Notes under the pieces: generated by a model
The model's database searches: none
Seen by the model: the letters and a program-made list of their open reading frames with translations, nothing else
Told to the model about the DNA's origin: nothing
In this document: positions 1,474-36,618 of the stretch, piece by piece
Layout: each line of letters opens with the position of its first letter
Position numbering within the stretch: position 1 is the stretch's first letter
Program-made: the position numbers and the translations under genes
Source of the DNA: Chiloscyllium plagiosum
Taxonomy: Eukaryota
Assembly: GCF_004010195.1 (NCBI RefSeq)
Contig: NC_057752.1
Coordinates: 2,563,440-2,603,250, forward strand
Direction of reading: 5' to 3'
DNA length: 39,811 nt

Positions 1474-2470
1474 TGAAAAATGTGGTGCTGGAAAAGCACA
1501 GCAGGCCAGGCAGCATCCGAGGAGCAGGAGAATCGACGTTTCGGGCATAAGCCTTTCTTCAGGAATGAGGCTGGTGTGCCAAGCGGGCTGAGATAAAGGG
1601 TAGAGGGGAGGGAATTTGGGGGAGGGGCGCTGGGAATACATAGGTGGAAGGAGGTGAGGGTGAGGGTGATAGGCCGGAGAGGGGGTNNNNNNNNNNNNNN
1701 NNNNNNNNNNNNNNNNNNNNNNNNNNNNNNNNNNNNNNNNNNNNNNNNNNNNNNNNNNNNNNNNNNNNNNNNNNNNNNNNNNNNNNNNNNNNNNNNNNNN
1801 NNNNNNNNNNNNNNNNNNNNNNNNNNNNNNNNNNNNNNNNNNNNNNNNNNNNNNNNNNNNNNNNNNNNNNNNNNNNNNNNNNNNNNNNNNNNNNNNNNNN
1901 NNNNNNNNNNNNNNNNNNNNNNNNNNNNNNNNNNNNNNNNNNNNNNNNNNNNNNNNNNNNNNNNNNNNNNNNNNNNNNNNNNNNNNNNNNNNNNNNNNNN
2001 NNNNNNNNNNNNNNNNNNNNNNNNNNNNNNNNNNNNNNNNNNNNNNNNNNNNNNNNNNNNNNNNNNNNNNNNNNNNNNNNNNNNNNNNNNNNNNNNNNNN
2101 NNNNNNNNNGGCGGAAATGACGGAGGATGATACGATGTATCCGGAGGTTGGTGGGGTGGAAGGTGAGGACCAGTGGGGTCCTGGTGGCGATTGGAGGGGT
2201 GGGGTTCAAGGGTGGAGGAATGGGAAGTGGACGAGATGCGGTGGAGAGCATCGTCGACAACGTCGGAGGGGAAATTGCGGTCTTTGAAGAAGGAAGCCAT
2301 TTGGGTTGATCGGTATTGGAATTGGTCCTCCTGGGTGCAGATGCGGCAGAGGTGAAGGAATTGGGAATACGGGATGGCGTTTTTACAGGGGGCAGGGTGG
2401 GAGCTGTGTTTTTCCAGCACCACATTTTTCAACTCTGGTCTCCAGCATCTGCAGTCCTCACTTTTCTCCC
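1474..2470 (-). mobile_element. Penelope-like element (family A, Neptune-like) fragment with inverted terminal segment and 17-bp TSD
   Basis: Minus strand encodes SSHPAPCKNAIPYSQFLHLCRICTQEDQF...FFKDRNFP (PLE RT C-terminal region). 1472-1500 is the inverted copy of 2405-2433. Direct repeat catgattagaacagggt at 1457-1473 and 2471-2487. The element spans an N gap. Confidence 0.88.
1531..1565 (-). ncRNA. Minimal type-I hammerhead ribozyme motif (PLE family A)
   Basis: Minus strand: ttc-CTGAAGA-a-aggc-ttat-gccc-GAAA-cg-TC-ga. One helix-II mismatch; ACGT helix III intact. Confidence 0.75.
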
Positions 2471-2781
2471 CATGATTAGAACAGGGTCGACGGGCTGAAT
2501 GGCCTGCTCCTCGTTCTTACGATCCACCGAGGCGCACCTTCCATTCTCAATGCTCAAGCTTGCTTTCGACATGGGTGGCTTCAGAAATAATTCATCCTGT
2601 TACTTTTTAGGTTTGTTTGCGGCATTGGCCCTGCGTCTAAATCCCACCCCTCCCTCACTGGACATGAGGGTGGCCCAATGCGTGTGTGGAGGGGGAATGG
2701 GGGAATGGTGCTGGCGCTAGGACCTGGTAGTTGGAGCAAGCAACGCTCAGTCCCAGTTCAGATCATTCCAACTTCCCGTGC

Positions 2782-2789
2782 TGACGTCA
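2782..2789. promoter_or_regulatory. Palindromic cAMP response element (CRE)
   Basis: Exact TGACGTCA within a CpG-rich region. Confidence 0.6.
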
Positions 2790-2819
2790 GCCTCCTCCTT
2801 TGACATTAAAAAAAAGAAA

Positions 2820-2885
2820 ATGTTGCTGTCGGTGCCCCGGCCAGGATTTACTCCGTATCCCTATCCGAGCCGTACATCAAAGAAG
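2820..2885 (+). CDS. Candidate short first coding exon (MLLSVPRPGFTPYPYPSRTSKK), gene unidentified
   Basis: AAAATG start (A at -3), 22 codons, AAG|GTAACG donor in phase 0, downstream of the CRE. No homology recognised; it could be UTR or purely regulatory. Confidence 0.3.
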
Positions 2886-3151
2886 GTAACGAAAAGTTCG
2901 AGGCTCCCTCTGGGCCGCGGGGCGCCGGTGGGGAACTGGGAGTGACGGGCTGGAAGGGTGTTTTTTTCTTGTACTCTCGGGGATTGAAGGGGCACCGTGG
3001 AAGCTGGAGGGGAGAAAGAGAGAGAGAGATGTTCCTGCACTTTCAGCAATTTCCCAACAGTTTAGAGCGGATTTTGCAACTTGGAAGGAAAATGGACTTT
3101 GTTTCTATTTTTTTTGGTCTGTGTTTTTTTTTGCTGTCGGGAGTTTGCAAT

Positions 3152-3188
3152 ACAGACAGACAGACAGACACACACACACACACACACA
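3152..3188. repeat. (ACAG)n-(AC)n compound microsatellite
   Basis: Read directly from the sequence. Confidence 0.95.
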
Positions 3189-3337
3189 AAAGTTTCTGCC
3201 AGTTCAGCCCAAGCTCTCGGGGAAAGCTGATCAGCCGCATTTTGTACAGACTGCGAATTCCGAAATGAAAACACAGCCGAGGGAGGAGGCTGGGAGGAGT
3301 GGGGTGGTGCTGAGATGTCGAACCTGGACATTGACAC

Positions 3338-3360
3338 TGTGTGTGTGTGTGTGTGTGTGT
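3338..3360. repeat. (TG)n microsatellite
   Basis: Read directly from the sequence. Confidence 0.95.
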
Positions 3361-4627
3361 ATTGCTGCCTCTGTTGAAGCTGCTCACATAATGTTGGTGG
3401 GGCCCACCATGTACCCAGAATGTTTGATTAATCCAAAGGGAATTAGGACCTCATTAAATGTGCATCCAAAGGTGGAGACAGCAATTCTTTTCCGCCGTTG
3501 GATGGATATGGTCGTTTACTATCTCTGATTTTTAAAAAAAACTGAATTATTTAGATCCAAGTCATGTTTTCGTTTTTTATTTGAGAGTCTGGGCAGTTTT
3601 GTCCTGTTCTGGGGCTGCATTTTTCCCTGTAATGGTTCAGTTCGCCCCTATTTCTTATTGGATTCCCCCCTCCCCCAGGGCAGGTAGAGAAGGAAGGGAA
3701 GGGGTACATGAATGGCAGTTCCTTGAACGGAGCTGTCGCCTTCCTTTAGTGGTACTGGGATATGTTCCTGGGACAGTCCCGGTGTGACAAGTGTTTACGC
3801 TGGGAGCATTTGGGAGAAATTTAATTCTGCATCCGCAGCGGAGGGCGGCTGGTGTCTGGGAGGTACAATGCTGGGTTCTAATGCCCATTTGAGCCCACAC
3901 TTGAAGTGATTTAAAATTGAGTGGCGACGTCTCAAATGAACCTGGTCCTTCTCTGTACAGTTCATCTGTCTCTTTGGGAACGTTAAATTGTGTGTGTGTG
4001 AGAGATAACATACCGAACCTTTCAGATACCTGGAGAGACATGACAAAAGAGCGAATGATGTTAGATACCCAGGATTCTGGGGCATGTGTGTGTGTAAGAG
4101 ACATTAAAGGATACTCACAGCATGGTCTAAAATAGATGGTGTGGGCTACAATATCTATGACCGGAATCTCTCCTGTCCGATTTTCCTCAATATTTCATCC
4201 CTGTAACTGACTGACTTTTATTTCTTTTGCTGAGAACTTGCTAGTGGCTTTTCACTGTCCGGCTTTCTATTCAGACTTTATGTTTTAACCTATTGGTGCG
4301 GAGATTTAACTACCACTGAGATGGAGCTATTGTTTGTGTCCGTGTCACGGTAGTTCCTCTCGTTTCAGTTGGAAGTTCTCTCAGAGCTACAATGTCCCTC
4401 CTTTTTTTAATATCAAATGCAGATAAGAGGTTACAGTATCCAGTTCCCATAATCCCAAGAGTTTGAACAAAGGAGCTGGATTTTTTTTGTCATATAAAAC
4501 GAATGAAGTTGCGTCAAATAATTCGCATTGTGTCCAGGTTCGCCCTCCCTCACGTAACCGAAATATTCAGTGTCCAATTAGCCTAGTGGCCATTGGAAGA
4601 TTCAGCTTCCCATTCCATGAACAAGGG

Positions 4628-4935
4628 GTTAAATGTACAAACTAGCGGGAGAAGGCTATTCAACCCCTCGAGATTGCTTTACTATTTACTAAGATTATGG
4701 TTGATCTAATTACTGCACATTCTCCCCCCATAACCTTTTCACTTCTATTTTGTCGATCTACCTCGGTCTTACAAATATTCAAGGACTTACGACTTTGAGA
4801 AATAATTTCACCTCCTCTCTGTTTAAATGGGTGACTTTTTAAAAGTGACATCTCTTCCCACCCCCCCACACACACACATCCCCGGAAGTTCTAGAATCTC
4901 TATCAGGGGAAAATGATCACCCCCCAGGATCTTAT
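4628..4935 (-). mobile_element. Old CR1 3' fragment
   Basis: gaaggctattcaacccctcgag...aagattatggttgatcta is the reverse complement of the CR1 3' tail. Confidence 0.6.
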
Positions 4936-4943
4936 AGATATTT

Positions 4944-5045
4944 TAGTCAACCTGTTCAAACATGTTATTATACACCTCTGGAGCGGGTGGGATTTGAACT
5001 TGGGCCTCCTGTCTCAGAGGTACGGACATTGCCATAAAAAGCCCT
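4944..5045 (-). mobile_element. ~100-bp tRNA-derived short SINE, copy 1
   Basis: B-box-like gttcaaatcccacc on the minus strand; homologous to 16424-16530 and 24727-24838. Confidence 0.7.
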
Positions 5046-5089
5046 TTCTGTTATGTTTGGGGCGGTGGGAGGTTTTACACACAATTCTT

Positions 5090-5492
5090 AGACAATTTGA
5101 CAGGAGAGATTGTTTCCCTTTATGGGGGAGTCTCGGGCCAGGGGGCATCATCTTAGAATTAGGAGTTGTACATTTAAGATGAGGAGTTTGTTCCCTCAGA
5201 GGGGAATGAATCTATGGAATTCTTTACCACGAAAGGCTGTGCAGGCTGGCTCATTGAAGAAGGGCTTATGCCCGAAACGTTGATTCTCCTGTTCCCTCGA
5301 TGCTGCCTGACCTGCTGCGCTTTTCCAGCAACACATTTTCAGCTCATTGGGTATATTCAAGGCCGAGGATAGATGTTTAATCAGGAGGGGAATGAAGAGT
5401 TTAAAAAAAGCTGGAGAGTGGGCTAGAGGGTTATCAGATCAGATATGATCCGATTGAATGGTGGAGCAGACTGGATGGGCTGAATGGCCTTT
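5090..5492 (+). mobile_element. CR1 3' fragment hosting a mini-PLE
   Basis: CR1 ORF2 end (gaatctatggaattcttt...gctgtgcaggc...tatattcaagg) and tail gggctgaatggcct. Confidence 0.75.
5257..5341 (+). mobile_element. ~85-bp PLE family A mini-insertion starting at the hammerhead core, 8-bp TSD
   Basis: (t)TGAAGA-a-gggc-ttat-gccc-GAAA-cg-TT followed by gattctcctg...ttccagcaacacattttc. TSD gctcattg at 5249-5256 and 5342-5349. Confidence 0.85.
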
Positions 5493-5504
5493 GTCTAGTC
5501 AGCG

Positions 5505-5635
5505 AAAAGCAAAGAACTGCGAATGCTGGCAATCCAAAACAGGAGCTGCTGGAGAAACTCACGCCTGGCAGCATCTGTGGAGAGAAAGCAGAGTTAACTG
5601 TTCAGGTCCAGTGACCCTTCTTCAGAACAGTTCTG
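5505..5635 (-). mobile_element. PLE family B short element with degenerate hammerhead
   Basis: Minus strand: gtt-CTGAAGA-a-gggt-cactgg-acct-GAAc-ag-TT-aac then tctgctttctctccacagatgctgccagg. Ends in the micro-palindrome cagaac-a-gttctg. Confidence 0.75.
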
Positions 5636-6427
5636 CTCCTATGTCTTATGGACTGGAGAGGGGTCATATCTCCATTGATATCTATTTTATAGGAGTACAG
5701 GGAGAGGTGGGGGACAAGTGATTCGTTGACCCCAATAAAATACGTTTCCAGCCCACGAACAGGTCGTTCGATCCAATAAGCCGTCCTTGCATTTGGACTG
5801 AGTCTCCTCGCCCTCTGTCTCACCTTCGGCCGTCAGACTGGAATAGAATGGGTGCATAGTAGAACGGAACGGTGTAATGTGAACAGTTATGAAGTGAGGA
5901 GAACCCCCACTCGGGGGGAGGGGTGGGGGGGAAGAGAGAGGAAGCAAGAGGAGAAACAGCCCCATTGTTTTAAAAAAAAACTTAATTCTGACCCTGAAGA
6001 CGATAACGTTGCAAACGACACGTGTGTTAATACCAGTTCTCCTCTTGCATTTCTGAACTGTTTGATTTAGCATTTATTGCCAATTCCAAGTGAGGTGGCT
6101 AAGATTTGAGTGTGTGGGAAAGGGGGTATGACAGAAAGGTGAGGCGGGGAATAGGGGGGAGGAGGAGGAAAAGGCGGGGAGAGACAGAGAGATATGGAGA
6201 GTTCCTGGATTAGAATCACTGCTGGAAAATGTTTAGTTTATAACGTGCAGGCAAATGTTTTATTTTTTTTAAAAAAGGGGACGAGGGTATTAAATCCACC
6301 CAAGATGCTCCCCCACCCCCCCAAAAATAAACAATGGGGCAAGGTTTCCAGGTCAGAGTTATCACATTTTTAAAAAAATTATGAAGAGGAAGTTAGCTAA
6401 AAAAAACGCAGTGTAAGATATCTTGTA

Positions 6428-6548
6428 AAAGCAAAATCCTGCCGCTGCTGCAAATCTGAAAGAAAAAAAACAGAAAATGCTGGAGAAACTCGGCAGGTCT
6501 GACACTATCTGTGGAGAGAAAGAGAATCAAAAGTTACCGTATCGAGTC
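6428..6548 (-). mobile_element. PLE family B tail fragment
   Basis: aaatgctggagaaactcggcaggtctgacactatctgtggagagaaa matches 5546-5590 and 11230-11282. Confidence 0.7.
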
Positions 6549-7577
6549 TGGTGTGCCTGTAGATTTTAAGACACTTCAAGTGTAGCGGAAAGGGGGGAAA
6601 AGTCTTTACAAAAGATTGATATTGACTTATGGGACCGCTGCTTTCGAACTGTAGCTCTTCTCTCCGCGATTAATGACTGGGCTCAGGGAGAAAGGCCATC
6701 TATTAAATTATTTGAGCGGGATAACAGTCGAAGCTTCAACCTCTGCCCTTTCAAGATTGCCAGCAAGGTCTGAAGGCTCCTGCCCTGACGAATGGTTTAG
6801 CTGTGGGGAGCTGGGGAGGGGGGCAGGGTGCGAGCTTTGGGTCAGAGCTGTTGTTTGGGAGAGGCAGATATATGAAAGCTGTCCACACCTTACTCCAGGC
6901 TGGGCCAGTGTGAGAAAGAGGACTCAGGCTTGAGTGGGTCGAGTGGTGTGTGGTGGTGGAGGGAAGGGGCATGTGTTGGCCGTTGGGATGCGAGGGAGAG
7001 CCATTCCTGTGTGTGTATCTGGGCCGTTGGGGTAAGGTATACGACGGGAGGATGGAATTAGGTGAGGGAGGNNNNNNNNNNNNNNNNNNNNNNNNNNNNN
7101 NNNNNNNNNNNNNNNNNNNNNNNNNNNNNNNNNNNNNNNNNNNNNNNNNNNNNNNNNNNNNNNNNNNNNNNNNNNNNNNNNNNNNNNNNNNNNNNNNNNN
7201 NNNNNNNNNNNNNNNNNNNNNNNNNNNNNNNNNNNNNNNNNNNNNNNNNNNNNNNNNNNNNNNNNNNNNNNNNNNNNNNNNNNNNNNNNNNNNNNNNNNN
7301 NNNNNNNNNNNNNNNNNNNNNNNNNNNNNNNNNNNNNNNNNNNNNNNNNNNNNNNNNNNNNNNNNNNNNNNNNNNNNNNNNNNNNNNNNNNNNNNNNNNN
7401 NNNNNNNNNNNNNNNNNNNNNNNNNNNNNNNNNNNNNNNNNNNNNNNNNNNNNNNNNNNNNNNNNNNNNNNNNNNNNNNNNNNNNNNNNNNNNNNNNNNN
7501 NNNNNNNNNNNNNNNNNNNNNNNNNNNNNNNNNNNNNNNNNNNNNNNNNNNNNNNNNNNNNNNNNNNNNNNCCTAAC

Positions 7578-11105: not shown

Positions 11106-11185
11106 GTGTTTTTAAATTACTGTATCTTCTGCTCAATGGAAGAGGTCTGTCATCCTTTGTGTGGAGAAGTGCTTCCTAACATCTC

Positions 11186-11436
11186 AATAAAAATGGAAAT
11201 AACTCTGGACGTTGTAAATCAAATGAAAACAGGAATTGTTGGAAAAGCTCAGCAGGTCTGGCAGCATCTGTGGAGAGAGAAATTGTGTTAATGTTTTGGG
11301 TCATACAGTCATCGAGTGACCTTTCCTCAGAATGTTCTGAGGAAGGGTCACTCAACCCGAAATGTTAACTCTGATTTCTCTCCACAGATGCTGCCAGACC
11401 TGCTGAGCTTTTCTAGTAATTCCTGTTTTGGTGTCT
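11186..11436. mobile_element. Fold-back (palindromic) PLE family B element with 9-bp TSD
   Basis: Arms at about 11226-11332 and 11335-11429 are reverse complements, centred on ctcagaa-tg-ttctgag. TSD taacatctc at 11177-11185 and 11437-11445. Confidence 0.88.
11334..11369 (+). ncRNA. Minimal type-I hammerhead ribozyme motif (PLE family B)
   Basis: gtt-CTGAGGA-a-gggt-cactca-accc-GAAA-tg-TT-aac: helix I gtt/aac, helix II gggt/accc. Confidence 0.75.
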
Positions 11437-11479
11437 TAACATCTCTCCTGAATGGTCTGGCCCTAATTCCCAGATGACA

Positions 11480-11872
11480 TGAACCAGATGGGCTTTTCCT
11501 GACAACTGTCAGGAAGTGTGGCGCTGGATAAGCACAACCAGTCAGGCAGCATCCGAGGAGCAGGAGAGTTGACATTTCGAGCATGACGTTTATGCTCGAA
11601 ACATCGACTCTCCTGCCCCTCTGATGCTGCCTGACCTGCTGTGCTTTTTACAGCGCCACACTTTTCAACTCTGACTCTCCTGCATCTGCAGTGCTCACTT
11701 TCTCCTTTCCCTGACAATTGGCAACAGTTTCATGGTCATCATTAGCTTCTTAATTTCAGATTTTTATTGTTGAATTCCAATTCCACCATGCCAAGATTTG
11801 AACCCAGGTTCTCCAGGACATTATCTGGGTCTTAATAGCTTAGCGATAATACCACCAGGCCATCACCTTCCC
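11480..11872 (-). mobile_element. tRNA-headed SINE 5' half, split by the palindromic PLE at 11513-11706
   Basis: gaaccagatgggc...catggtcatcattag...gatttgaacccagg...gataataccaccaggccatcacctt. Confidence 0.75.
11513..11706. mobile_element. Fold-back PLE family A element folded inside hammerhead helix II
   Basis: 11513-11585 is the reverse complement of about 11592-11663, centred on tttcgagcat-gacgtt-tatgctcgaaa, plus the extra tail caactctgactctcctgcatctgcagtgctcactttctcct. Imperfect TSD cctgacaa(c/t)tg on both sides. Confidence 0.85.
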
Positions 11873-12451
11873 TTCTGATGCTTGTTTGGCAAGCCAGCAC
11901 AGACATGATGGGCTGAATCGCCCCCTTCTATGCTGCAGTGATTGTGATTCAAGTTGGTGATTGTGGGACATGGCATTGGGATGGGGGATGTGGCTGGTGC
12001 TGAATCAGCAAGTGGAACTGTAGGTCTGGGAGCAGAGGTCTGAAGTTGCAGCTAGCTGGCTCCATCATTATCTGACCTGCGAGACGTTTACTGACCATGA
12101 TTTAAAAAGCCTTTCTTTCTCTCCCTCACCTTGACAAACACCATGCTCAGCACATAAGTGCAGGTCCTGTCGAGGAAAGCTGTAATACAAACACAGCAAG
12201 TGTGTAAACACACAGGCACGACTTGAATTTGAGACAGCCCCAGTGTTGAACCTCAAGGTCAGTCCAATATATTTTTGCTGTGTGGGTTTTATTGCTGCTG
12301 GGAAGGTGCAGGCACTGATGGCAACCTCAACAGCATTGCAGCTATCTGTTCTTCCCCACCCCCACACTCCAGTGGGATATACAACCCTTGTACATGAAAA
12401 TAACTGAAAACAGAGTCTGCTGGAGAAACTCAGCAGGTTTGGCAGCAGGCT

Positions 12452-12900
12452 CATAGTTCCTCGTAGGTGGAGTCGCAGGTAGACAGGGTGTAAGGGCAGC
12501 GTTTGCTACGCTTGCCTTCATTGGTCAGTGTATTGAGTATAGGAGTTGGGCCGTCATGTTGTGGCTGTACAGAACATTGGTTAGGCCATGTTTGGAACAT
12601 TGTGTGCAATTCTGGTCTCCCTGGTATTGTTAAACTTGAGAGGGTGCAGAAAGGGCTTATGCCCGAAATGTCGATTCTCCGGTTCCCTGGATGCTGCCTG
12701 ACCTGCTGCGCTGTTCCAGCAACACATTTTCAGCTCTGATCTCCAGCATCTGCAGACCTCACTTTCTCCTGCAGAAAAGACTAACCAGGGATATGGGCCA
12801 AATGCTGGCAAATGGGACTAGATTAATTTAGGATATCTGGTTGGCATGGATGAGTTGGAGCGAAGGGTCTGTTTCCGCGCTGTACAGCTCTATGACTATC
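12452..12900 (+). mobile_element. CR1 ORF2 3' fragment with internal deletion and tail
   Basis: High similarity to 29795-30010 (...VKLERVQK) and 30370-30478 (gaagggtctgtttcc...ctctatgact). Confidence 0.85.
12653..12769 (+). mobile_element. ~117-bp PLE family A mini-insertion starting at hammerhead helix II, 8-bp TSD
   Basis: gggcttatgcccGAAAtgTCga...ctccagcatctgcagacctcactttctcc. TSD tgcagaaa at 12645-12652 and 12770-12777. Confidence 0.87.
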
Positions 12901-13140
12901 GGTGGAGAGAGAAACTGAATCAATGTTTCAAGTCCAATACAACTCTTCTTTGGAACTGAAGAGGGATGAGAAGTAGTGATAGGTTTTATTTGGAAGAAAA
13001 GGTGGGGAAAGGGGCAAGTGGGACAGAATGTTAAAGGCTGAGGGTGATTAGAAATAAAAAAAACATAAATGAAAGGGAATGGTAATGGTTGCAGAGAAGT
13101 GACCAAGCCTCGTTTCAGAGTAGGTGTTAATAGCAGAATG
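12901..13140 (-). mobile_element. Older PLE family B-related fragment
   Basis: gtggagagagaaactgaatcaatgtttcaagtccaatacaactcttctttggaact is a degenerate hammerhead region followed by a purine-rich body. Confidence 0.5.
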
Positions 13141-13830: not shown

Positions 13831-13965
13831 AGATAACAGTAAGCAAAGATGATGGCTTTGGTCTCCCAAATGCTACTCAGGAAAAAACTGCAGGTCATTT
13901 AAGACTGGACGTCAGACGTGATGTGATGGCCTAGTGGTATTATCGCTAGACTATTAATCTCCAGT

Positions 13966-14510
13966 CAAAAATTGTGGTGCTGGAAAAGCACAGCAGGTCA
14001 GGCAGCATCCAAGGAGCGGGAGAATTGATGTTTCGGGCATAAGCCCTTCATCAGGAATGTGGGAGGAGGTGAGAAAGGGGCTGAGTAATAAATTGGGTGG
14101 TGGGGCTGGGAGAAGATAGCTGGGAAGGCAATAGGTAGATGAAGGTGAGGGGTAATGGTGATAGGATGGAGCAGATAGGTGGGAAGGAAGGTGGACAGTT
14201 CAAGAGGGTGGTGCCAAGTTGGAGGGTTGGATCTGGGATGAGGTGAGGGGAGGGGAGGGGAGATGAGGAAACTGGTGAAGTCGATGTGGTTGGAGGGTGC
14301 CAGGAGGAAGATGAGGCATTCTTCCTCCAGGTGTCGGGTGGCTAGGATTTGGAGATGGAGGCGGCCCAAGATTTGCATGTCCTTAGTGGAGTCTGAGGAG
14401 GAGCTGAGATTGTCAGCCACAGGGAGGCAGGGTTGTTTGGTGCGTGTGTCCCAGAGATGTTCCCTGAAAAGTTTTGTGGGTTGGCGTCCTCTCCCCAATC
14501 TAGAGGAGAG
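13966..14510 (-). mobile_element. PLE family A 3' fragment: GIY-YIG C-terminal part plus hammerhead-bearing terminal repeat
   Basis: Minus-strand ORF LFREHLWDTRTKQPCLPVAD...DMQILG...RHLEEECLIFLL. Hammerhead at 14023-14058: ttc-CTGATGA-a-gggc-ttat-gccc-GAAA-ca-TC. Inserted in a SINE head (13923-13962, resuming 14514-14529). Confidence 0.85.
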
Positions 14511-14529
14511 CAATATTAGTCTAGAGACC

Positions 14530-15022
14530 TGTTACAGACCAGACCAAACCCCCTCAAGCTATTCCAATGATAGTCTAAACGCTAACTTTTTCTTACTTTA
14601 AAGGTAAATGTAATGTGTTGCATTCCAGATGTAGTTAAATTGGTCAAACTACTGGACTTAAATCAAAACACATTTTATTCATCCACTATAATTAAAATAC
14701 AACAAAATCAAGAAGGAATTGGAATAACTTAACTCTACTGGAAAACTTAACAGACCAATAGATACAGTAACTATTACTAATTTAACTGTTCCAATATAGT
14801 AACATCCCATAAATGCACCCTTGGTAAAAGGCAAATTCAGATACCGATTATCTTACTGTAACTTCAGTAGCCTAAGAGAAGAACATCAAGAGAACTTTGA
14901 CTGTAGCAGGCAGGAGAGATTTACTGCAGCTTTCAACCCTGCTGAGAACCCCAGCAACAACTACTGAATGCCAAAACTAAAGATCCTGGTTTTGTGGGTG
15001 GGAGCTTGACCACGCCCATTCA
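14530..15022 (-). mobile_element. Possible solo-LTR fragment (Gypsy-like)
   Basis: Starts abruptly with TGTTAC where the SINE head stops; AT-rich; AATAAA on the minus strand near 14673. No second terminus is visible. Confidence 0.4.
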
Positions 15023-15177
15023 GAGTCGAGAGGGTGGTGCTGGAAAAGCACAGCAGGTCAGGCAGCATCCGAGGAATGAAACAATTGATGTTTCAGGCAT
15101 AAGCCCTTCATCAGGAATGAGGCTTGTGGTCCAGAAGGCTGAAGATAAATGGGAGTGGGGGTGGGGTTGGGGCAGTC
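15023..15177 (-). mobile_element. PLE family A terminal repeat with hammerhead motif
   Basis: Minus strand 15083-15117: ttc-CTGATGA-a-gggc-ttat-gcct-GAAA-ca-TC-aa; body matches 1481-1575. Confidence 0.85.
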
Positions 15178-16423: not shown

Positions 16424-16530
16424 CTAATCAATCTGTTCCAAGGTGTTATGACATGCACCTCGGGTGGGACTTGTACCCAAGTCTCCTGGTTCAGAGGTAG
16501 GGACACTTTCACTGTGCCACAACAGCCATA
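16424..16530 (-). mobile_element. ~100-bp tRNA-derived short SINE, copy 2
   Basis: Homologous to 4944-5045; minus-strand head tgtggcacagtg...gtacaagtcccacc. Confidence 0.7.
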
Positions 16531-22210: not shown

Positions 22211-23399
22211 CCCCCACCCCATATCCATTTCCCCCCCTTTTTTATTTTTGCTGTTTGTTTTATTTCCTCTTGCTCTGCAAGTATTGATTCATCATGGCCT
22301 ATGGATCGACAGCATGCGAGCAACCCAACATTGTGCCAAGGAGTTTAGATCTCAGAGTCCAGTTTAGAGTAGGAGTTTGAAAGCACTTGCTCATGCGAAA
22401 ACAAAATAGAAATCTGGAACTCTTGAGGTGAAGTTGATAGATATTTTTTCTTGCGTTCAGGGTGATAGAACTGAAGTCAGGATCTAATGGAATGGCTTGG
22501 TCCTGTTCACTTTTTCACTCATGGGACACTGGCGTCACTGGCTGGGCCCAGCATTTACTGCCCGTCCTTAGTTGCCCTTGAAGGTGGTGGTGGACTGCCT
22601 TTGTAGTGCTGGGGAATGGTCACCCCCAAGCCGCAAATGGCACAAGGTGGAGACATGGTGTGTTCCATGAAGTATTTATGAAATTCCTGTTTTGAAAGAT
22701 GCAGTTAAATTTGTTTCCTTCTGTCTTTCAGACAGAGTGGTTCAGATCACCACAACTCACTCTGTTAAATTAAAAGTGGTGGTGTGGGGGGGGGAACATC
22801 CCATATATCTCTCTTCTCTGGATCTTTTGCCAACGATCTGAATCTGGAGCAGCCTTTATGGCATGGCCTCATGCCCATGAGTAATAGAACAAGACAGGCC
22901 AACTTCATTTCACTTTCACTTCCACACAGTCGACAATGATCAGTCAGTCAGTGTGGCCTGGAAGTTGATCAGGTGAATAGAGTGGAGAGAGGAATGACGA
23001 TGAAATAAAAATACCATTTGTTTTTCTTTTTGTGGGGAGTGGGCATCGCAAGTTGGGCCAGCATTTATTCCCTGCCCCAAATTGCCCTGGTGAGGATGGC
23101 AGTAAGCTGCAGTCCTTGAGGCGGAGGTAGCATTCTAACATGCACACACCACTCAATTAGCCTGAGATTCCTTCATCAGAATCAGGAGAATTCACTGGCC
23201 TCCCTGCAAGGCCCATGCCTTAGGATCTGGCAGAATTCCCCAAAGTGTCGGAAGAAGCAGGGCCTGAAACAGGGTGCAAGCCCTGATCCATTAGAGAACC
23301 TGACTTCTCCTGAAACAAAGGCCAGATGTTTTGAGAAGATTTGTAGCTCGGGTTGAGGTTCTGGATGTAGGTTTGCTCACTGAGCTGGAAGATTCATTT

Positions 23400-23439
23400 C
23401 CAGATGTTTCGTCACCCTACTAGGTAATATCTTCAGTGG
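23400..23439 (-). ncRNA. Minimal type-I hammerhead motif (family C, left arm)
   Basis: cca-CTGAAGA-t-attacc-tagtag-ggtgac-GAAA-ca-TC-tgg. Confidence 0.72.
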
Positions 23440-23617
23440 GCATCAGGCGAAGCACTGCTGATGATTCCTGCTTTCTATTTATGTGTTAGGGTTTCTTTGG
23501 GCTGGTGATGTCATTTCCAGTGGGAATGTACCGCAGGAAATGACAACACTAGCCCAAAGCAACCCAAACATAGAAATAGAAAGCAGGAATTATCATTAGC
23601 AGTGCTTTGCCTGAGGC

Positions 23618-23657
23618 CCACTGAAGATGTTACCTAGCAGCGTGACGAAACATCTGG
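23618..23657 (+). ncRNA. Minimal type-I hammerhead motif (family C, right arm)
   Basis: cca-CTGAAGA-t-gttac-ctagcagc-gtgac-GAAA-ca-TC-tgg; helix I cca/tgg. Confidence 0.75.
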
Positions 23658-23825
23658 AAATGAACCTTTCAGCTCAGCGAGCAAACCTCCATCCATAAAG
23701 GCCAGATGCAACCAAGTGAGAGAGTTAATTAGTGGCAATGATCAATGTATTGATACTTCAGCAACTAAATATTGCGTCAGACAATCTCTCACTGTCTTCT
23801 TTCAAATAGTACCACGAGCTCTGTT

Positions 23826-24904: not shown

Positions 24905-25565
24905 TTCTTTGTATTCATTCATAAGTGGACATCACTGGCTGGGCCCAGCATTTATTGCCTGTCCCTAGTTGCCCCTTGAGGAGGTGGTGAGCTGCCTTCT
25001 CGAATGCTGCAGTCCTGCTCTGAGGGGACCTACAATGCCCTGAGGGAGGGAGTTCCAGGATTTTGACCCAGCAACAGTGAAGGAACGGCGATAGATTTCC
25101 AAGTCAGGATGGCGAGTGGCTTGGAGGGGAACCTGTGGTGTTCCCATGTATCTGCTGCTTTTATCCTTTTAGGTGGAAATGGTCATGGGTTTAGAAGGTG
25201 CTGTCTGAGGATCTTTGGTGAATTTCTGCAGGGCATCTTGTAGATAGCACACACTACTGCTACTGAGCGTCAGTGGTGGAGGAGCAGCGCTTCAAAAGCT
25301 AGTTATTCCAAATAAACCTGTTGGACTATAACCTGGTGTTGTGTGATCTTTTAACTTTGTCACTGAGTATTCCTCACCTCTGACCTACTATTGTAGCCAC
25401 TGTATTTATATAGCTAGTTAAGTTCTGTTTCTGGTCAATGACAGCCTTCTGGTTGTTGTTATTGGAGGATTCAGTGACTGTAACACCATCAAAGGGTGGA
25501 GCTTAGATTGTCTCTTAATGGCGATGGTCATTGCCCGGCATTTGTATGGCGTGAATATTACCTTG
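24905..25565 (-). mobile_element. CR1/L2-group LINE 3' fragment (partner of the tRNA-headed SINE tail)
   Basis: Reverse-complement match to 37825-38053 and 38545-38885; SFTVAGSKSWNSLP motif. Confidence 0.78.
25281..25361 (+). mobile_element. PLE family D remnant starting at hammerhead helix II
   Basis: ggagc-agc-gcttc-aAAA-gc-TA then ccaaataaacctgttggactataacctggtgttgtgtga. It interrupts the LINE; the family assignment is from recalled shark repeats. Confidence 0.55.
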
Positions 25566-27231
25566 GATGACTAAATGTGGTTTCGGGGAGGCGGGTGCAG
25601 GGTCTCAGTGGGATGGCATGTTTGGCATGATGGAAGTTGGCCATGTTGGTGGTGATGGGTTGAAATCCAGAGCTGGTCTATTCAGGAAGCATGTGGATGG
25701 AAATCTGAACTTGTGTTTCTGTGTCTCTGTGTGTCTCTCTCCCCTGAGCTCCTGAGGCTGAAAATGTTTTTCCAAAGGAGTGTTTTTTTTTGTGTGTTGG
25801 GCTCCAGAACCAAAGTTAGTCGATTACGATATTGACCTAGCAATAAACAAACAAAATCATGGGATAGTTTCGAGGGGCTAAATTTCCTCTTGAATGGCTG
25901 TTTTTGCATTTTGATTTAACGGTGTTATTGCAGTCTGTTTGGTCATCCTTGCTTTTCTGTTCATAGGTAATCATCAGCATTTTTAACGAAGTAGTCAGCC
26001 TGTCTGTAGCCTTTAAAATAGAATGAGTCAGACAAGATGATTTTCGTAGATTGCAAGCAAATGAAGGGAGCTGCTATGAATGAATGAATGTTATTTATAT
26101 CTTAATTTAGCACAATAGTTGTGAACTATTATTTTCAACTTGCGGAGCTAGTTAAACTTGGTAAATATATATCGATATTGTTAGTGCTCCTATTTGCTTC
26201 GTTTACTGTCTACTGTTCACTGTTTGGACTTACAGCTGAAATCAAAGTCTAGATGTGTTGACACTTGGAAGAATCACGAGATTAAGAGCGAGAGCTGAAA
26301 TATATCTTAAGCAGGATCCATCCCAGAGCAAGCTACAAATCTGAGTGAGTGAAAACACTCGCTGTGGGACACAGGAGACGGCACCTCCTCTGTGAACTTC
26401 TGAAAATGGAAGCCAGAATTGTCTCGTCTTTTTAAAAAAAAATGTACAGAAAGCCACAGTTGTGGTTGAGTTCTGAGCCACAATGGAATCTACTTTCCCT
26501 GCAGGGCTTGCAACCCTATTTGAATTCTGCTCCGATCTTCTTTTAACCTCATTAAATTCTGTTCCCTGGAAGCCCAAATATCTTGGAGGACAAGTTAGTA
26601 CTTTGTGTGGCAGCTGCCAAAATTGACTGGCCTTGATAACAAGGGCTGCCCTTTAAGAAGGTCCCAATTCTCGGGAATGCTGGGGAGACATTCCAAGAAT
26701 CCCATTTGTTCAATAGGCCACTGAAAAGAGCTTTTCAGTCTGAAAGACCGTGACCACCTCAATAGATGAATGCGTCGCTCTCTGACCCCCTGCAAAACCC
26801 TCGGGTGATCATGCTAATAGTTGTCAATTGCCACACAACAAGGGAGACTCTGAGGCGAGCTGTGTTGAAGGACACTGCCATGCTGCCAAGGCGGATGAGT
26901 TTGACTGACGACAAGTTGGTTGACGGTGGCTCATGTTTTATTCTGCATGGAGACTGTCTTCGATTCTGGGGGCCTTTATGGAAGACCGTGTTAACCCAGC
27001 TTGGTTTGCCCTCCATGGTGAGGTGCCCAACTTGAAGTGGCAATGAGCTCCTTTCTTCTTGTTGTTATCCTTTTTCCCTCCAGTGTTGGTATCAACCAGT
27101 CCCAGTTTATCTCACATCTCTGGGGTTAGTTGGCTGGACAGGCTAATTTGTGATGCCAACAGCATGGGTTAAATTCCTCCACTGGCTGAGGCTACCATGA
27201 AGGTCACTCCTCCTCAACCTCTCCCCTCACC

Positions 27232-30200
27232 TGAGACTGGCTCTAATGCAATGAGGGGTATGTCACATTCCAAGAGATCAACTGTGTTCGGGGATTCTGT
27301 AGTCAGAGGTACAGGCAGATGTTTCTGTGGCCAGCAGAGAAAAAGCAGAATGGTGTGCTGTTTCCTTGGTGCCAGGATCAAGGAAGTCTCCGAGAGGGTG
27401 CAGAATGTTCTCACGGGGGAGAAGGGCCAGCAGGAGGTCATTGTCCACATTGGAACCAACGACATTGGAAGGGAAAAGGTTGAGACTCTGAAGGGAGATT
27501 ACAGAGAGTTAGGCAGAAATTTAAAAAGGAGGTCCTCAAGGGTAGTAATATCTNNNNNNNNNNNNNNNNNNNNNNNNNNNNNNNNNNNNNNNNNNNNNNN
27601 NNNNNNNNNNNNNNNNNNNNNNNNNNNNNNNNNNNNNNNNNNNNNNNNNNNNNNNNNNNNNNNNNNNNNNNNNNNNNNNNNNNNNNNNNNNNNNNNNNNN
27701 NNNNNNNNNNNNNNNNNNNNNNNNNNNNNNNNNNNNNNNNNNNNNNNNNNNNNNNNNNNNNNNNNNNNNNNNNNNNNNNNNNNNNNNNNNNNNNNNNNNN
27801 NNNNNNNNNNNNNNNNGTGGCATTTTTGATAAGGGATAGCATTACAGCTGTGCTGAAGGAGGATATTCCCAGAAATACATCCAGGGAAGTTATTTGGGTG
27901 GAACTGAGAAATAAGAAAGGGATGGTCACCTTATTGGGATTGTATTATAGACCCCCCAATAGTCAGAGGGAAATTGAGAAACAAACTTGTAAGGAGATCT
28001 CAGCTATCTGTAAGAATAATGGGGTGGGTATGGTAGGGGATTTTAACTTTCCAAACACCGACTGGGACTGCCATAGTGTTTAAAGGTTTAGATGGAGAGG
28101 AATTTAAGTGTGTACAAGACAATTTTCTGATTCAGTATGTGGATGTACCTACTCAAGGTGCAAAACTTGACCTACTCTTGGGAAATAAGGCAGGGCAGGT
28201 GAATGAGGTGTCAGTGGGGGAAGACTTTGGGGCCAGCGACCATTATTCTATTTGTTTTAAAATAGTGATGGAAAAGGATAGACCAGATCTAAAAGTTGAA
28301 GTTCTAAATTGGAGAAAGGCCAATTTTGACGATATTAGGCAAGAACTTTCGAAAGCTGATTGGAGGCAGATGGTCGCAAGTAAAGGGACGGCTGGAAAAG
28401 GGGAAGCCTTCAGAAATGAGATAACAAGAATCCAGAGAAAGTGTATTCCAGTCAGGGTGAAAGGAAAGGCTGGTAGATATAGGGAATGCTGGATGACTAA
28501 AGAAATTGAGGGTTTGGTTAAGAAAAAGAAGGAAGCATATGTCAGGTATAGACAGGATAGATCGAGTGAATCCTTAGAAGAGTATAAAGAAAGTAGGAGT
28601 ATACTTAAGAGGGAAATCAGGAGGGCAAAACGGGGACATGAGATAGCTTTGGCAAATAGAATTAAGGAGAATCCAAAGGAGTTTTACAAATATATTAAGG
28701 ACAAAAGGGTAAGTAGGTAGAGAATAGGGCTCCTCAAAGATCAGCAAGGTGGCCTTTGTGTGGAGCCACAGAAAATGGGGGAGATACTAAATGAATATTT
28801 TAATTAGCATTTACTATGGAAAAGGATATGGAAGATATAGACTGTAGGGAAATAGATGGTGATATCTTGCAAAATGTCCTGTTTACAGAGGAGGAAGTGC
28901 TGGATGTCTTGAAATGGTTAAAGGTGGATAAAACCCCAGGACCTGATCAGGTGTACCTGAGAACTCTGTGGGAAGCTAGAGAAGTGATTGCTGGGCTTCT
29001 TGCTGAGGTATGTGTATCATTGATAGTCACAGGTGAGGTGCCGGAAGACTGGAGGTTGGCAAACGTGGTGCCACTGTTTAAGAAGCGCGGTAAAGACAAG
29101 CCAGGGAACTATAGACCAGTGAGCCTGACCTCGGTGGTGGGCAAGCTGTTGGATGGAATCCTGAGGGACAGGATGTACATGTATTTGGAAAGGCAAGGAC
29201 TGATTCGGGATAGTCAGCATGGCTTTGTGTGTGGGAAATCATGTCTCACAAACTTGATTGAGTTTTTTGAAGAAGTAACAAAGAAGATTGAGGGCAGAGC
29301 AGTCGATGTGATCTATATGGACTTCAGTAAGGCGTTCCACAAGGTTCCCCATGGGAGACTGATTAGCATGGAATACAGGGGGAACTAGTCATTTGGATAC
29401 AGAAATGGCTCAAAGGTAGACAGAGGGTGGTGGTGGAGGGTTGTTTTTCAGACTGGAGGCCTGTGTCCAGTGGAGTGCCACAAGGATCGGTGCTGGGTCC
29501 TCTACTGTTTTGTCATTTACATAAATGATTTGGATGTGAGCATTAGAGGTACAGTTAGTAAGTTTGCAGATGACACCAAAATTGGAGGTGTAGTAGACAG
29601 CGAAGAGGGTTACCTCAGATTACAACAGGATGTGGACCAGATGGGCCAATGGGCTGAGAAGTGGCAGATGGAGCTTAATTCAGATAAATGCGAGGTGCTG
29701 CATTTTGGGAAAGCAAATCTTAGCAGGACTTATACACTTAATGGTAAGGTCCTAGGGAGTGTTGCTGAACAAAGAGACCTTGGAGTGCAGGTTCATAGCT
29801 CCTTGAAAGTGGGGTCACAGGTAGATAGGATAGTGAAGAAGGCGTTTGGTATGCTTTCCTTTATTGGTCAGAGTATTGAGTACAGGAGTTGGGAGGTCAT
29901 GTTGCGGCTGTACAGGACATTGGTTAGGCCGCTGTTGGAATATTGCGTGCAATTCTGGTCTCCTTCCTACCAAAGATGTTGTGAAACTTGAAAGGGTTCA
30001 GAAAAGATTTACAAGGATGTTGCCAGGGTTGGAGGATCTGAACTACAAGGAGAGGCTGAACAGGCTGGGGCTGTTCTTCCTGGAGCGTCGGAGGCTGAGG
30101 GGTGACCTTATAGAGGTTTACAAAATTCTGAGGGGCATGGATAGGATAAGTAGACACCGTCTTTTCCCTGGGGTCGGGGAGTCCAGAACTGGATGGTGTA

Positions 30201-30479
30201 GGTTTAGGGTGAGAGGGGAAAGATATAAAAGAGACCTAAGGGGCAACTTTTTCACGCAGAGAGTGGTACGTGTATGGAATGAGCTGCCAGAGGATGTGGT
30301 GGAGGCTGGTACAATTGCAACATTTAAAAGGCATTTGGATGAATATATGAATAGGAAGGGTTTGGAGGGATATGGGCCAGGTGCTGGCAGGTCGGACTAG
30401 ATTTGGTTGGGATATCTGGTCGGCATGGACGGGTTGGATCGAAGGGTCTGTTTCCATGCTGTACATCTCTATGACTCTA
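27232..30479 (+). mobile_element. 5'-truncated CR1 LINE (HER1-like), ORF1 esterase plus frameshifted ORF2 (APE endonuclease and RT)
   Basis: ORF1 GDSVVR...GARI...HIGTND. ORF2 YYRPPN, VGDFNFP, LDLLL, SDH, NYRPVSLTS, QHGF, YMDFSKAF, KFADDTK, EYCVQFWSP, FFTQRVV. Several frameshifts and stops. Tail gaagggtctgtttccatgctgtacatctctatgactcta. Confidence 0.97.
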
Positions 30480-31879: not shown

Positions 31880-32088
31880 TTTGTTCCAAGGATGTGGGCA
31901 TTGCTGGCTGGGCCAGCATTTATTGCCCGTTCCTAGTTGCCCCATGAGGTGGTGAGCTGTCTTCTTGAACCACTGCAGTCTTTGGTGCAGGCAGACCCAC
32001 AATGCCCTTGGGAAGGGAGTTCCAGGATTTTGACCCAGTGTCGGTGAATGAACTGGGATATGTTTCCAGGTCGGAATGGTGTATGGCT
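31880..32088 (-). mobile_element. CR1/L2-group LINE 3' end
   Basis: Similar to 24925-25120. Confidence 0.8.
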
Positions 32089-33218: not shown

Positions 33219-33254
33219 CTGTCATTCTCTTCAATTTCTGAAGACTCCATGATA

Positions 33255-34360
33255 GGATGTAGGTTTGCTCACTGAGCTGGAAGGTTCATGTCCTGACGTT
33301 TCGTCACCCTACTAGGTAACATCTTCAGTGGGCCTCTGGGTGAAGCACTGCTGATGATTCCTGCTTTCTATTTATATGTTTGGATTTCTTTGGGTTGGTG
33401 TTGTCATTTCCTGTTCTTTTTCTCAGGGGGTGGTAGATGGGGTCTAACTCGATGGGTTTGTTGATAAAGTTCCCGTTGCAATGCCATGCTTCGAGGAATT
33501 CTTGTGCGTGTTTGGCTTGTTCTAGGATGGATGTGTTGTCCCAGTCGAAGTGGTGTCCTTCCTCCTCTGTATGTAAGGATACTAGTGAGAGAGGGTCATG
33601 TTGTTTTGTGGCTAATGATGTTCATGTATCCTGGTGGCTAATTTTCTGCCTGTTTGTCCAATGTAGTGTTACAGTTCTTGCATGGTATTTTGTAAATGAC
33701 AGTAGTTTTGTTTGTTGTCTGTATAGGGTCTTTCAAGTTCATTAGCTGCTGTTTTAGTGTATTGGTGGGTTTGTGGGCTACCATGATGCCAAGGGATCGG
33801 AGTAGTCTGGCAGTCATTTCCGAGTTGTCTTTGATGTAGGGGAGAGTGGCTAGGGTTTCTGGATGTGTTTTGTCTGCTTGTTTGGGTTTGTTGCTGAGAA
33901 ATCGGTGAACTGTGTTCATTGCGTACCCATTCTTTTTGAATACACGGTATAGGTGATTTTCCTCGGTGCTGCAGTGTGTGTTGGCTCGTTGAAATAATGT
34001 TCTGATGCAGCTTCGTTTGTGGGTGTTGGGATGATTGCTTCTGTCGTTCAATATTTGGTTTGTATGTGTTGTTTTCCTGTAGACACTGGTTTGAAGTTCC
34101 CCATTGGTTGTTCGCTCTACTGTGACATCTAGGAATGGCAGTTTGTTGTTGTTGTTGTTGTTGTTTTCCTCCTCTTTAGTGAATTTTATGCCAGTAAGGG
34201 CATTATTGATGATCTTGAAGGTTTCCTCTAATTTGTTTTGTTTAGTGATGACAAAAATGTCATCCACATAGCGGATCCAAAGTTTGGGTTGGATGGTTGG
34301 CAGAGCTGTTTGTTCGAGTCTCTCTGCATTACTGCCTCTGCTAAGAACCCTGATATCGGA
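33255..34360 (-). mobile_element. Penelope/Poseidon-like element (family C): RT C-half, GIY-YIG endonuclease, hammerhead terminal repeat
   Basis: Minus strand PISGFLAEAVMQR/LEQTALPTIQPKLWIRYVDDIFVI...KLPFLDV...VYRKTTHT...SNHPNTHKRSCIRTLFQRA...TLPYI...VIYKIPCKNC, then frameshifted IGQTGRKLATRIHEH...GHHFDW...FLEAWH. Confidence 0.95.
33292..33331 (-). ncRNA. Minimal type-I hammerhead motif in the 3' repeat of the coding PLE
   Basis: cca-CTGAAGA-t-gttacc-tagtag-ggtgac-GAAA-cg-TC-agg; intact ACGT helix III and GUC triplet. Confidence 0.78.
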
Positions 34361-35377
34361 TTGCCAACCCTCGGAGCCTATATGAGCAAGGGCAAGGGGG
34401 GTATCTGGGTGTTTCCATTCCTGATCCCAATGTCATCCAGAGGTGGCAATGTTCAGGGGTTGGGAGAGGGGTACAGAGTGAAAGGGAGTAGGGAGGGAGA
34501 GAAAAGATTTTAAAATGGGGACAAAATGTAAGGTATGGGGGTGGGGGGTGTTGCTGTAAGATGCCAATCCCAAAAGATGGTGAACACTTTGCAAGACACA
34601 AAATGGCAGTCAGATAATTGCAGGGAGATGAATCTGGCGGCTTTGCTGATGGGCTGTCTGGAGGCTTACCACATTGGCCTGTAGACCAGCAGCCTGCACC
34701 GCAGGTCAAGCCTGGTATTTATCAATGTCAATTAAAATTGATTGGTGCATATCATCGAGATAGTGGAGGCTGTCAGTTTTGCTGCCTCTGTATCTGCTTG
34801 CTCCCAGCCTACGCGACGAGCTTGGGTTACCACTTCAACACCTGGCTCTCAAAATACCTTCTGGGTATTAAGATCGGCAGATGATCAGCTCGCAAGATGT
34901 AGCTGCAGACTTTGGGGGCGGTGGCAGAGTAGAAGATGCAGGATCCCTTCCTGCACAGGAATTGATGTCCTTGCATGTAATATCCAAACAGAGTACCAAG
35001 TATGCAGTGAAAGCAAAAACCTGTTGTTTCATCCAGCCATTACATAGCCTTGTCTGCGTCATTAACTTGTCTGGACTGACACAGGATCCCCATTATAGAG
35101 TGAATCGTTTAGGCAGCTTACACTGTGATTACTTTAATTAACAGTGGCTCTCCCCTCTCTTGTTTTTTTGTCCTGTCGAGTTTCTTCGACTGCCTTCTAT
35201 TTGATGGAACAGCATTTATACTCGACGTATCTTTCAGGCAGCACTCCTTAAACAGTGTTGTCATTTAGTTAGCAAGCACAGCCACCATTTTGTGTGTAGC
35301 AAGCTATCATGAGCACCAAACTCATTTTAAATCCGAGATTAGATTTTTGTTTAAGGTATATGGGAGAAAGAGTTATT

Positions 35378-35631
35378 AGAATTAGATTCCCTACTGTGGG
35401 GTACAGACCCTTCAGCCCAACAAGTCCCTAAACACTATGGGCAATGTAACTCAGCCAATTCACCTGACCTGCACACCTTTGGATAGTGGGAGGAAACTGG
35501 AGCACCTGGAGGAAACTCACGCAGACACGGGAAGAATGTACAAACTCCACACAAACAGTCGCCCGAGGCTGGAATCAAACCTGGGTCCCTGGTGCTGAGG
35601 CTGCAGTGCTAACCACTGTGCCATCGTGCCA
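35378..35631 (-). mobile_element. HE1-type V-SINE, near full length
   Basis: Minus head ggcacgatggcacagtggttagcactgcagcctcagcaccagggacccaggtttgattcc; V-domain gtgtggagtttgtacattcttcccgtgtctgcgtgagtttcctccaggtgctccagtttcctccca; CR1-type tail. Confidence 0.9.
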
Positions 35632-35744
35632 CTCAGAGCAGCCACTATCTCATTGGTGATACAGGATTGAGAGGCTGAATGGCCTACTCCTGTTCTGAAA
35701 TGCAGTGACTGTCCAGTAAATCTTTTTTCCTCCCCCTGACTGAG

Positions 35745-35910
35745 GGGACCTCTTCTGAAAAAGATGCCATGGGATCTTTGGCATGCATGTGACTGAATCG
35801 ACAGCTTGAGTATTGCTTTGATGTGCCACCCGAAGTGTGTTTTTGTTTGTTTTCCTGAGTAACAGAATGCTCCCTTGGTACTACCAGGTGAGTGCTGGCC
35901 TTTATGTATT
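35745..35910 (-). mobile_element. DeuSINE-like core fragment
   Basis: Minus strand aaagatcccatggcatctttttcagaagag resembles the Deu core; a similar motif is at 18864-18880 (+). Confidence 0.6.
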
Positions 35911-36524
35911 CCACAAACACCACCGCCCTGCCCCGCCCTGCCCCGCCCACAACAATCTTTGGGGAGAAAAGTGGGAGAAGACCCAAGGCTTCCTTGGAGC
36001 ACCTTGATCTTGGCCTCCACTATTCCAGGGCCCACCCCTGGGCAGGTCTGGTGGAAAGGGGAGGCTCCCTCTGTTCAGGCCTCACCAAAATTGCAGTCAG
36101 TCCCTGATTGCATCACTATGTGCCTTTTTTTTAAATCAAAGAACGGACCTCTCTGCAGGTGTCCTAGGTGCCTGTTCAAACAAGGATCTTTGTAGCTAAA
36201 CAACTGACCCTCCTATTATTGGCTCTTTGGCTGGTTTTGGTTGAGGGAGGGCCAGGCAGAGAGCTGGGTTAAAAATCAGGACTGGTGTGTTGTCTTTAGG
36301 ATTTAAAGAAAAATGAGAGTGTTAATGTTCGCATTTTATTCATGAAAGAAAATGAACAGTGGGCCTCCTGTGCATTTGACTGTTCTCTGGTAACCTTTGG
36401 GCAGAGACTATTTCCATATAGTTTACACTGTCTTGTTACTGTTTTGTTAGATTGAAAGTTTTAGCCTTCATTTTGTTATGAAAACAATTTGGTGCTTTAT
36501 CAGCCAGGGCTATTTTCCTATTGA

Positions 36525-36618
36525 TGCAAAAGTGAAATGCTGCAGATGCTGGAATTCTGAAACCAAAGATGTGGAAAGTGCTCAGTGAGGTCAGGTTACA
36601 TCTGGGAAGAGAGAAACG
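36525..36618 (-). mobile_element. Old PLE family B tail
   Basis: tgctgcagatgctggaattctgaaacc...gtgctcag...catctgggaagagagaaac. Confidence 0.55.

Follow-up and report, generated by a model that had tools for sequence, protein, structure and literature searches.

Short hammerhead-ribozyme repeats of Chiloscyllium plagiosum as probable pseudo-LTR pieces of Penelope-like elements

A stretch of 39,811 nucleotides from Chiloscyllium plagiosum (contig NC_057752.1, positions 2,563,440 to 2,603,250; hereafter, the window) is dotted with short repeats that carry hammerhead ribozymes, which raises the question of what these repeats are and how they came to be there. A preliminary description, made from the letters of the window alone, assigned them to four families (A to D) derived from Penelope-like elements (PLEs) and proposed that they behave as a population resembling short interspersed nuclear elements (SINEs) or retrozymes. 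All the sites it listed were present with the helix II sequences it gave. Our analysis points to another origin: the short repeats are very probably pieces that comprise only the pseudo-long terminal repeat (pseudo-LTR or pLTR) of at least four PLE families encoding reverse transcriptase (RT) and GIY-YIG domains, likely generated new at each insertion and likely unable to move again.

Family profiles identified 19 hammerhead-tail arms in the window (8 of A, 7 of B, 3 of C and 1 of D), which represent 15 insertions, the arms being paired in four cases. Both CUGANGA and GAAA are kept in seven arms (1539, 11337, 14031, 15091, 23407, 23621 and 33299), and two of the 19 pass a strict minimal-hammerhead descriptor, the others being decayed or cut inside the core. 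An Rfam scan of the window matched no hammerhead family at E values up to 5, and the Rfam microRNA matches found there were attributed to fold-backs. Genome-wide counts were taken from 80 evenly spaced 10-kb stretches (780,113 non-N bases of a 3.56-Gb genome), in which the strict descriptor gave 56 matches, against 0-3 in each of 10 shuffles, in agreement with the minimal type-I hammerheads of PLE origin that had been described. The family profiles, which were trained partly on the same 780-kb sample in which they were later counted, recovered 293 arms, equivalent to 376 per Mb and 3.7% of bases, and gave no match on reversed sequence. If this large-contig sample is representative, the genome would hold 1.15-1.53 million arms, about 1.3 million, and some 250,000 strict-descriptor matches; the great abundance predicted in the preliminary description was thus borne out. 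Enrichment specific to the window was rejected, since 19 arms in 38.6 kb is an ordinary density.

As judged from the sequences, the hammerheads are genuine in form. The strict descriptor revealed in the genome sample a fifth family, E, which is absent from the window; it is provisionally Poseidon-like (L058:7651-7736 and L064:9160-9282), its helix I reads GCA/UGC, and its helix II opens with an ATG. The consensuses of all five families contain CUGANGA, a spacer base, a helix II that starts with G-C (G10.1-C11.1), GAAA and UH. Helix III is palindromic, ACGU except in D, where it is AGCU, and helix I is 2-4 bp long, its two strands changing together between families (UC/GA, GUU/AAC, CCA/UGG, CAC/GUG and GCA/UGC, by inspection). 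Compensating differences between families, again judged by inspection, occur in helices I and III. Conservation of the core above the tail held for four families and failed for one: non-CpG core columns exceeded tail columns in A (0.97 versus 0.89) and likewise in B, C and E, the exception being D (0.93 versus 0.93). Identity at G12, a CpG site, falls to 0.57-0.86. We infer that selection acting on master elements would keep the ribozyme while the inserted copies decay.

The connection with complete elements is provided by long copies, which in each family show stepwise 5' truncation and have the hammerhead-tail block as their 3' end. Upstream of the block in A, B, C and D are consensus open reading frames (ORFs) that contain RT (YIDD/YVDD) and GIY-YIG; the physical joining to PLE coding sequence previously described for A and C in the window thus stands, and extends to B and D elsewhere in the genome. 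Family E, too, runs upstream into RT and GIY-YIG coding sequence. All Pfam matches of the consensus ORFs fall below the curated cut-offs (RVT_1, E 7e-6 for D and 9e-6 for C; GIY-YIG, E 0.0035 for C), the PLE fragments of the window itself gave no Pfam match, and Atlas neighbours at 0.96-0.97 had GIY-YIG in 13-18% of members. The family C protein yielded 49,838 first-look candidates. The linker between RT and endonuclease (EN) has a CxxC motif in A and D, lacks it in C and is unreadable in B; a CxxC linker is a Neptune-like trait (PMC8557442). The clades considered were Neptune for A, B and D and Penelope/Poseidon for C and E. At 25 loci each for A and C, chosen for 5' body sequence, the hammerhead-tail block also runs straight into the 5' body, with a cut-to-cut unit length of 3,516 nt (A) or 2,451 nt (C). 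Since the same block thus stands at the 5' start and at the 3' end of full-length copies, it is a pseudo-LTR. The claim that the copies are non-coding does not extend to family C, where the block is the start of the ORF: helix II begins with the ATG, from which genomic copies read on in frame. Sequences resembling 3' splice sites were seen at the end of the family A long tail (pyrimidine tract and TAG, L197 2389-2400) and in family B (pyrimidine tract and CAG ahead of an ATG, window 11375-11392); no donor for either was found. Introns in the 5' untranslated region (UTR) of PLEs are known. N gaps lie frequently within the C-rich 3' part of family A copies (L001-L010, L113, L119, L122-L126 and window 1687-2109), so that long copies may be under-assembled.

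How the pieces were inserted can be read from their ends. In every family the copies terminate 3' at one or other of two fixed positions, separated by 35-40 nt. Among 57 inverted pairs, 50 combine a long with a short arm, seven were scored as short plus short and none as long plus long; by these scores a tail of 30-40 nt stands at one end only (50/57). Target-site duplications (TSDs) of at least 10 bp flank 33 of 56 pairs, against 19 of 668 mismatched controls, with elements at stretch edges left out of the counts. The TSDs uphold the view that short copies were individually inserted, but several of the copies listed in the preliminary description are the two arms of one fold-back insertion. 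On inspection, the fold-back junctions of all 57 pairs differ; we accordingly rejected a reading as miniature inverted-repeat transposable elements (MITEs), there being no fixed palindromic unit copied whole. In the mechanism that we propose, the endonuclease would nick both target strands and RT would start within the RNA at either of the two tail sites, a start at a tail site having been shown in vitro for an anole element (PMC11167929). The stubs would then be by-products of autonomous elements, made anew at each insertion, with the ribozyme as a passenger. The insertions of the window are given below, with signed positions relative to the predicted cut after UH (0).

1474..2470, minus strand: insertion of family A; the hammerhead (core 1539-1562) and a short tail form the 3' end, and there follow a gap of Ns (1687-2109), a piece coding for the RT thumb (2110-2402) and, in inverted orientation, a long-tail arm (2403-2470); TSD 1457-1473 / 2471-2487.
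5255..5341, plus strand: stub of family A that spans -27 to +60 and lacks the first base of the core; TSD of 8 bp, 5249-5256 / 5342-5349.
5511..5630, minus strand: family B stub, -33 to about +94, core decayed.
6427..6558, minus strand: old family B stub, core lost.
11186..11436, no single strand: family B fold-back; one arm on the minus strand (-32 to +104) and one on the plus strand (-33 to +70, core 11337-11362); TSD about 11177-11185 / 11437-11445.
11506..11708, no single strand: family A fold-back; its arms extend from -14 to +57 and from -16 to +96 and meet within helix II, TSD of about 10-13 bp.
12402..12447, minus strand: family B tail fragment, without core.
12651..12769, plus strand: family A stub, -22 to the long tail, without the CUGA box; TSD 12645-12652 / 12770-12777.
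12885..12960, minus strand: old family B-like hammerhead region, found by profile in addition to the sites described earlier.
13965..14530, minus strand: 5'-truncated family A copy; GIY-YIG C-terminal remnant, 3' UTR, hammerhead (core 14031-14054), short tail.
15030..15175, minus strand: family A copy beginning at about -90, core 15091-15114.
23329..23696, no single strand: family C fold-back; its arms extend from -127 to +75 and from -122 to +44, with cores at 23407-23436 (minus) and 23621-23650 (plus); 12-bp TSD 23317-23328 / 23697-23708.
25274..25361, plus strand: family D stub, -28 to +60, core degenerate.
33255..34360, minus strand: 5'-truncated family C copy; a remnant of RT core/thumb and GIY-YIG is followed by the 3' UTR, an intact hammerhead with its core at 33299-33328, and a short tail.
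36530..36618, minus strand: old family B-like tail fragment, without core.

Could the stubs instead be non-autonomous SINE-like or retrozyme-like families that amplify from short masters of their own by means of PLE enzymes, as the preliminary description supposed? They are short, about a million strong and have a narrow 5' boundary in common; some clusters of the family A tree hold short copies only; and pLTRs can act in trans, being sufficient for mobilisation in this manner according to Arkhipova 2013 (PMC3846280). We nevertheless regard this explanation as improbable. The 780 kb and the window contained no regular head-to-tail arrays, none of 18 near neighbours forming one, and a simple pattern scan of the five family ends found no A or B box of RNA polymerase III. 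In a tree of 93 family A arms (61 short, 30 long and 2 intermediate; 84 columns), short and long copies are interleaved, their labels requiring 22 changes against 25.0 when shuffled. Every diagnostic subfamily of A with more than one copy mixes long copies with short ones, and the two classes have identical tails in common. The stubs begin downstream of a TATA-like box, and their other end lies at the RT start site, although RNA extending far past that site is required by the anole enzyme (PMC11167929). Together with the differing fold-back junctions, the lack of arrays and of polymerase III boxes and the interleaving led us to set aside the SINE-like or retrozyme-like population. Several points weigh against our own reading of the stubs as by-products. 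The family A tree is mostly unresolved, with 46-49 of 500 shuffles as low; TSDs of at least 10 bp were found in only 21 of 168 solo arms, and in 13 of 61 solos of the 5'-end pile-up described below (controls, 12/302); in the window, 6 of 15 insertions have a TSD of at least 8 bp; and the mobilisation of pLTRs in trans would allow some stub mobility.

The other end of the stubs is no less regular. Of the 250 arms of A, B and D in the genome sample, 165 reach -25, and 115 of these 165 end within -40..-26. The rate of ends in this interval is 0.047 per nt, compared with 0.003-0.010 in other bins, that of the cut site included, and is thus about nine times background. This pile-up lies 25-40 nt upstream of the cut site and some 30 nt past the TATA-like box. 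Ends in the same interval were also seen in 51 of 84 arms of tightly abutting pairs, the upstream flanks of 61 pile-up solos are unrelated save for one duplicated pair, and in a simulation of 400 copies 43 were called in the pile-up bin where 42 were true. On the strength of the simulation, the abutting arms and the unrelated flanks a mapping artefact was rejected, as was a splice junction, there being no shared upstream sequence.

Two explanations of this boundary fare poorly. If the stubs were monomers cut by the hammerhead, with boundaries set by self-cleavage, one fold-back of family C would fit, since both of its arms begin at the predicted cut site (L067:6986-7104); it is the sole such pair among the 57. 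The end distribution already contradicts this explanation, which is hardly credible: ends near the cut site are at background (16/210 in -10..+4), genomic copies span the site uncut, and uncut RNA is the main template of the anole element (PMC11167929). Recombination between the terminal repeats of a full-length copy, with a solo pseudo-LTR left behind, is very unlikely as a source, even though full-length A copies starting at -31/-28 exist and recombination has been proposed for rotifer solo pLTRs (PMC3846280). The 5' body of A, with 560 first-look candidates, is scarce beside the several hundred thousand arms of this family; the occurrence of the pile-up in either arm of fold-backs would go unexplained; and the boundary at -32 would still need a cause.

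A promoter offers a better fit. TATAAA lies at -63 in B and -69 in D, and TTTATC at -63 in A; an initiator-like CA follows 29-32 nt after the TATA-like box, at -34 (B), -37 (D) and -32 (A). The TATA and initiator (Inr) consensus and spacing applied here are general knowledge. Among long copies, TATAWA occurs at -100..-55 in 14/32 of B, 25/35 of C and 29/36 of D, and never in the control window. TATA- and Inr-like motifs have been noted in the pLTR of one rotifer PLE (PMC8557442 / PMC3846280). Eight 5' ends of full-length A copies were found, three at -31, -28 and -28, two further upstream and three that stop short. We lean towards the view that the pile-up of A, B and D marks the 5' end of the RNA behind a TATA-like box, where RT would mostly run off, 25-40 nt upstream of the cut site. 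As the likely RNA 5' end, the pile-up would make the stubs strong-stop-like cDNAs.

Against this RNA-start interpretation, family A lacks a canonical TATA box (0/39 long copies) and its ends extend out to -39, while those of D peak at -33/-32, 4-5 nt downstream of the predicted -37. Young arms of C (42) and E (46), chosen by tail identity, mostly run far upstream, and E is nearly flat. The D. virilis Penelope promoter is internal and TATA-less (PMC2377424). Further, poly(A) RNA reads of run X21 showed no pile-up of starts, 98% running on into unlike sequence, an outcome that also weighs against an RNA start, though alone it decides neither way. It is possible, if rather doubtful, that stubs with the same by-product origin pile up because RT pauses or drops off at the upstream edge of a folded or protein-bound ribozyme in the 3' copy, a rival to the RNA-start step only. 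In A, B and D the peak falls on the 5' strand of helix I, the mode of D at -33/-32 fits the ribozyme edge better than TATA+30, and any stall would be followed by template jumps. An RT moving 3' to 5', however, should stall at the 3' foot of the stem, yet the rate there is low (0.005 per nt at -10..+4). Ribozymes of the same kind in C and E show little edge pile-up, and the weak peak of C is shifted to -57..-40 (6/36 in -55..-41), in step with its TATAAA at -81.

The RNA-start interpretation also touches on how longer copies arise. Of 29 forward skips in family A, six restart in the peak; among the eight that skip more than 1 kb, five do so (at loci partly selected for 5' sequence) and join a stub starting at -37..-29 to mid-element sequence. 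L187 (G000:C2:119596966-119600315), for example, is TSD-flanked and consists of a piece from -31 to mid-RT followed by one from -31 to +63. Direct joins of family A 5' body pieces to stubs starting at -37..-29 were observed at L187, L191, L196, L203 and L021:2805, and look like template jumps after a first short cDNA. Similar joins at L197:2519-2522 (-32 to -35) occur in contigs of two other runs, the RNA status of which is a guess, so that the support is weak. Tentatively, and with more doubt than belief, we suggest that in Neptune-type PLEs RT begins for the most part at whichever tail site is 5'-proximal and reaches the 5' end of the RNA, where it runs off, after 90-130 nt, so that longer copies and promoter-restoring partial tandems would need a jump to the 3' part of the RNA. 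The stub sequence L197:2375-2524 is abundant in the X21 reads, running on into unlike sequence; such stubs are likely passengers in host transcripts, and fold-back copies could form double-stranded RNA.

Other repeats share the window. A long remnant of a different RT-coding retroelement, with RVT_1 matches, lies on the plus strand at 27173-30400; we take it to be CR1-like. Several PLE stubs (for example 5255 and 12651) lie inside fragments of long interspersed nuclear elements (LINEs) similar to this remnant. A weak tRNA-like match (16456-16526, minus strand, 22 bits, below the Rfam cut-off) is possibly a SINE head.

For annotation, hammerhead-tail pieces, about 3.7% of the sampled DNA, should be filed as PLE ends and not as MITEs, SINEs or retrozymes. 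The regeneration of the pseudo-LTR by PLEs was called unexplained in PMC2377424. The strong-stop-and-jump model, if true, would fill this gap and could be tested on a million footprints in the genome, and the 5'-end pile-up with the stub-to-body joins makes it directly testable. The ribozyme and the insertion anatomy are already known; the quantified pile-up is the lead worth following.

The minus-strand strong-stop DNA of LTR retroelements is a short first cDNA whose start site is close to the 5' end of the RNA and which leaves the promoter box upstream of it. The stubs are like it in layout but are target-primed and lack LTR machinery, and the likeness is one of analogy only. Non-LTR retrozymes (Cervera and De la Pena 2020, PMC7229834; bioRxiv 10.64898/2026.07.22.740005) share with our repeats a type I hammerhead, kinship with PLE pLTRs and dispersed non-coding monomers; they differ in being defined by units repeated head to tail, each with its own hammerhead, and by circular RNA, whereas the copies described here are single or inverted. 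Closer are the minimal hammerheads of metazoan PLEs (Cervera and De la Pena 2014, PMC4209133), which have in common the spacer base after A9, G10.1-C11.1 and a palindromic two-base helix III, as well as several consensus families per genome and opposite-strand pairs 100-700 bp apart; most were single motifs, 'probably related to truncated PLEs'. The present genome differs in its helix I of 2-4 bp and in its strict matches, about 250,000 here compared with about 4,000 in coelacanth and 9,000 in Xenopus, counted with differing descriptors.

The Anolis Poseidon element PAc (Frangieh et al. 2024, PMC11167929) resembles family C in that its ORF begins where helix II begins and in that its 3' ends fall at two sites separated by about 35 nt; it inserts uncut RNA, and the copies here likewise span the cut site uncut. 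Neither short run-off products of PAc nor the positions of genomic 5' ends are described in the available text. Neither the pile-up nor these families in sharks were found described in the literature searched, which stood apart from Repbase/Dfam and subscription papers, and the supplementary figures of PMC4209133 and PMC11167929 may show end distributions. With the EN+ PLEs (Penelope/Poseidon and Neptune; Craig et al. 2021, PMC8557442; Arkhipova et al. 2013, PMC3846280) our families share RT with a C-terminal GIY-YIG, a hammerhead pseudo-LTR, heavy 5' truncation, an adjoining inverted truncated copy, a 30-40 nt tail at one end, TSDs and partial tandems. They are unlike those published in that most copies are pLTR-only, with the arms extrapolated above, and in the sharp 5' pile-up beside the ribozyme in A, B and D, which the available portions of these two papers do not describe. 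The ribozyme, tail, inverted arm and TSD are published PLE features, and the families are further members of the EN+ PLEs.

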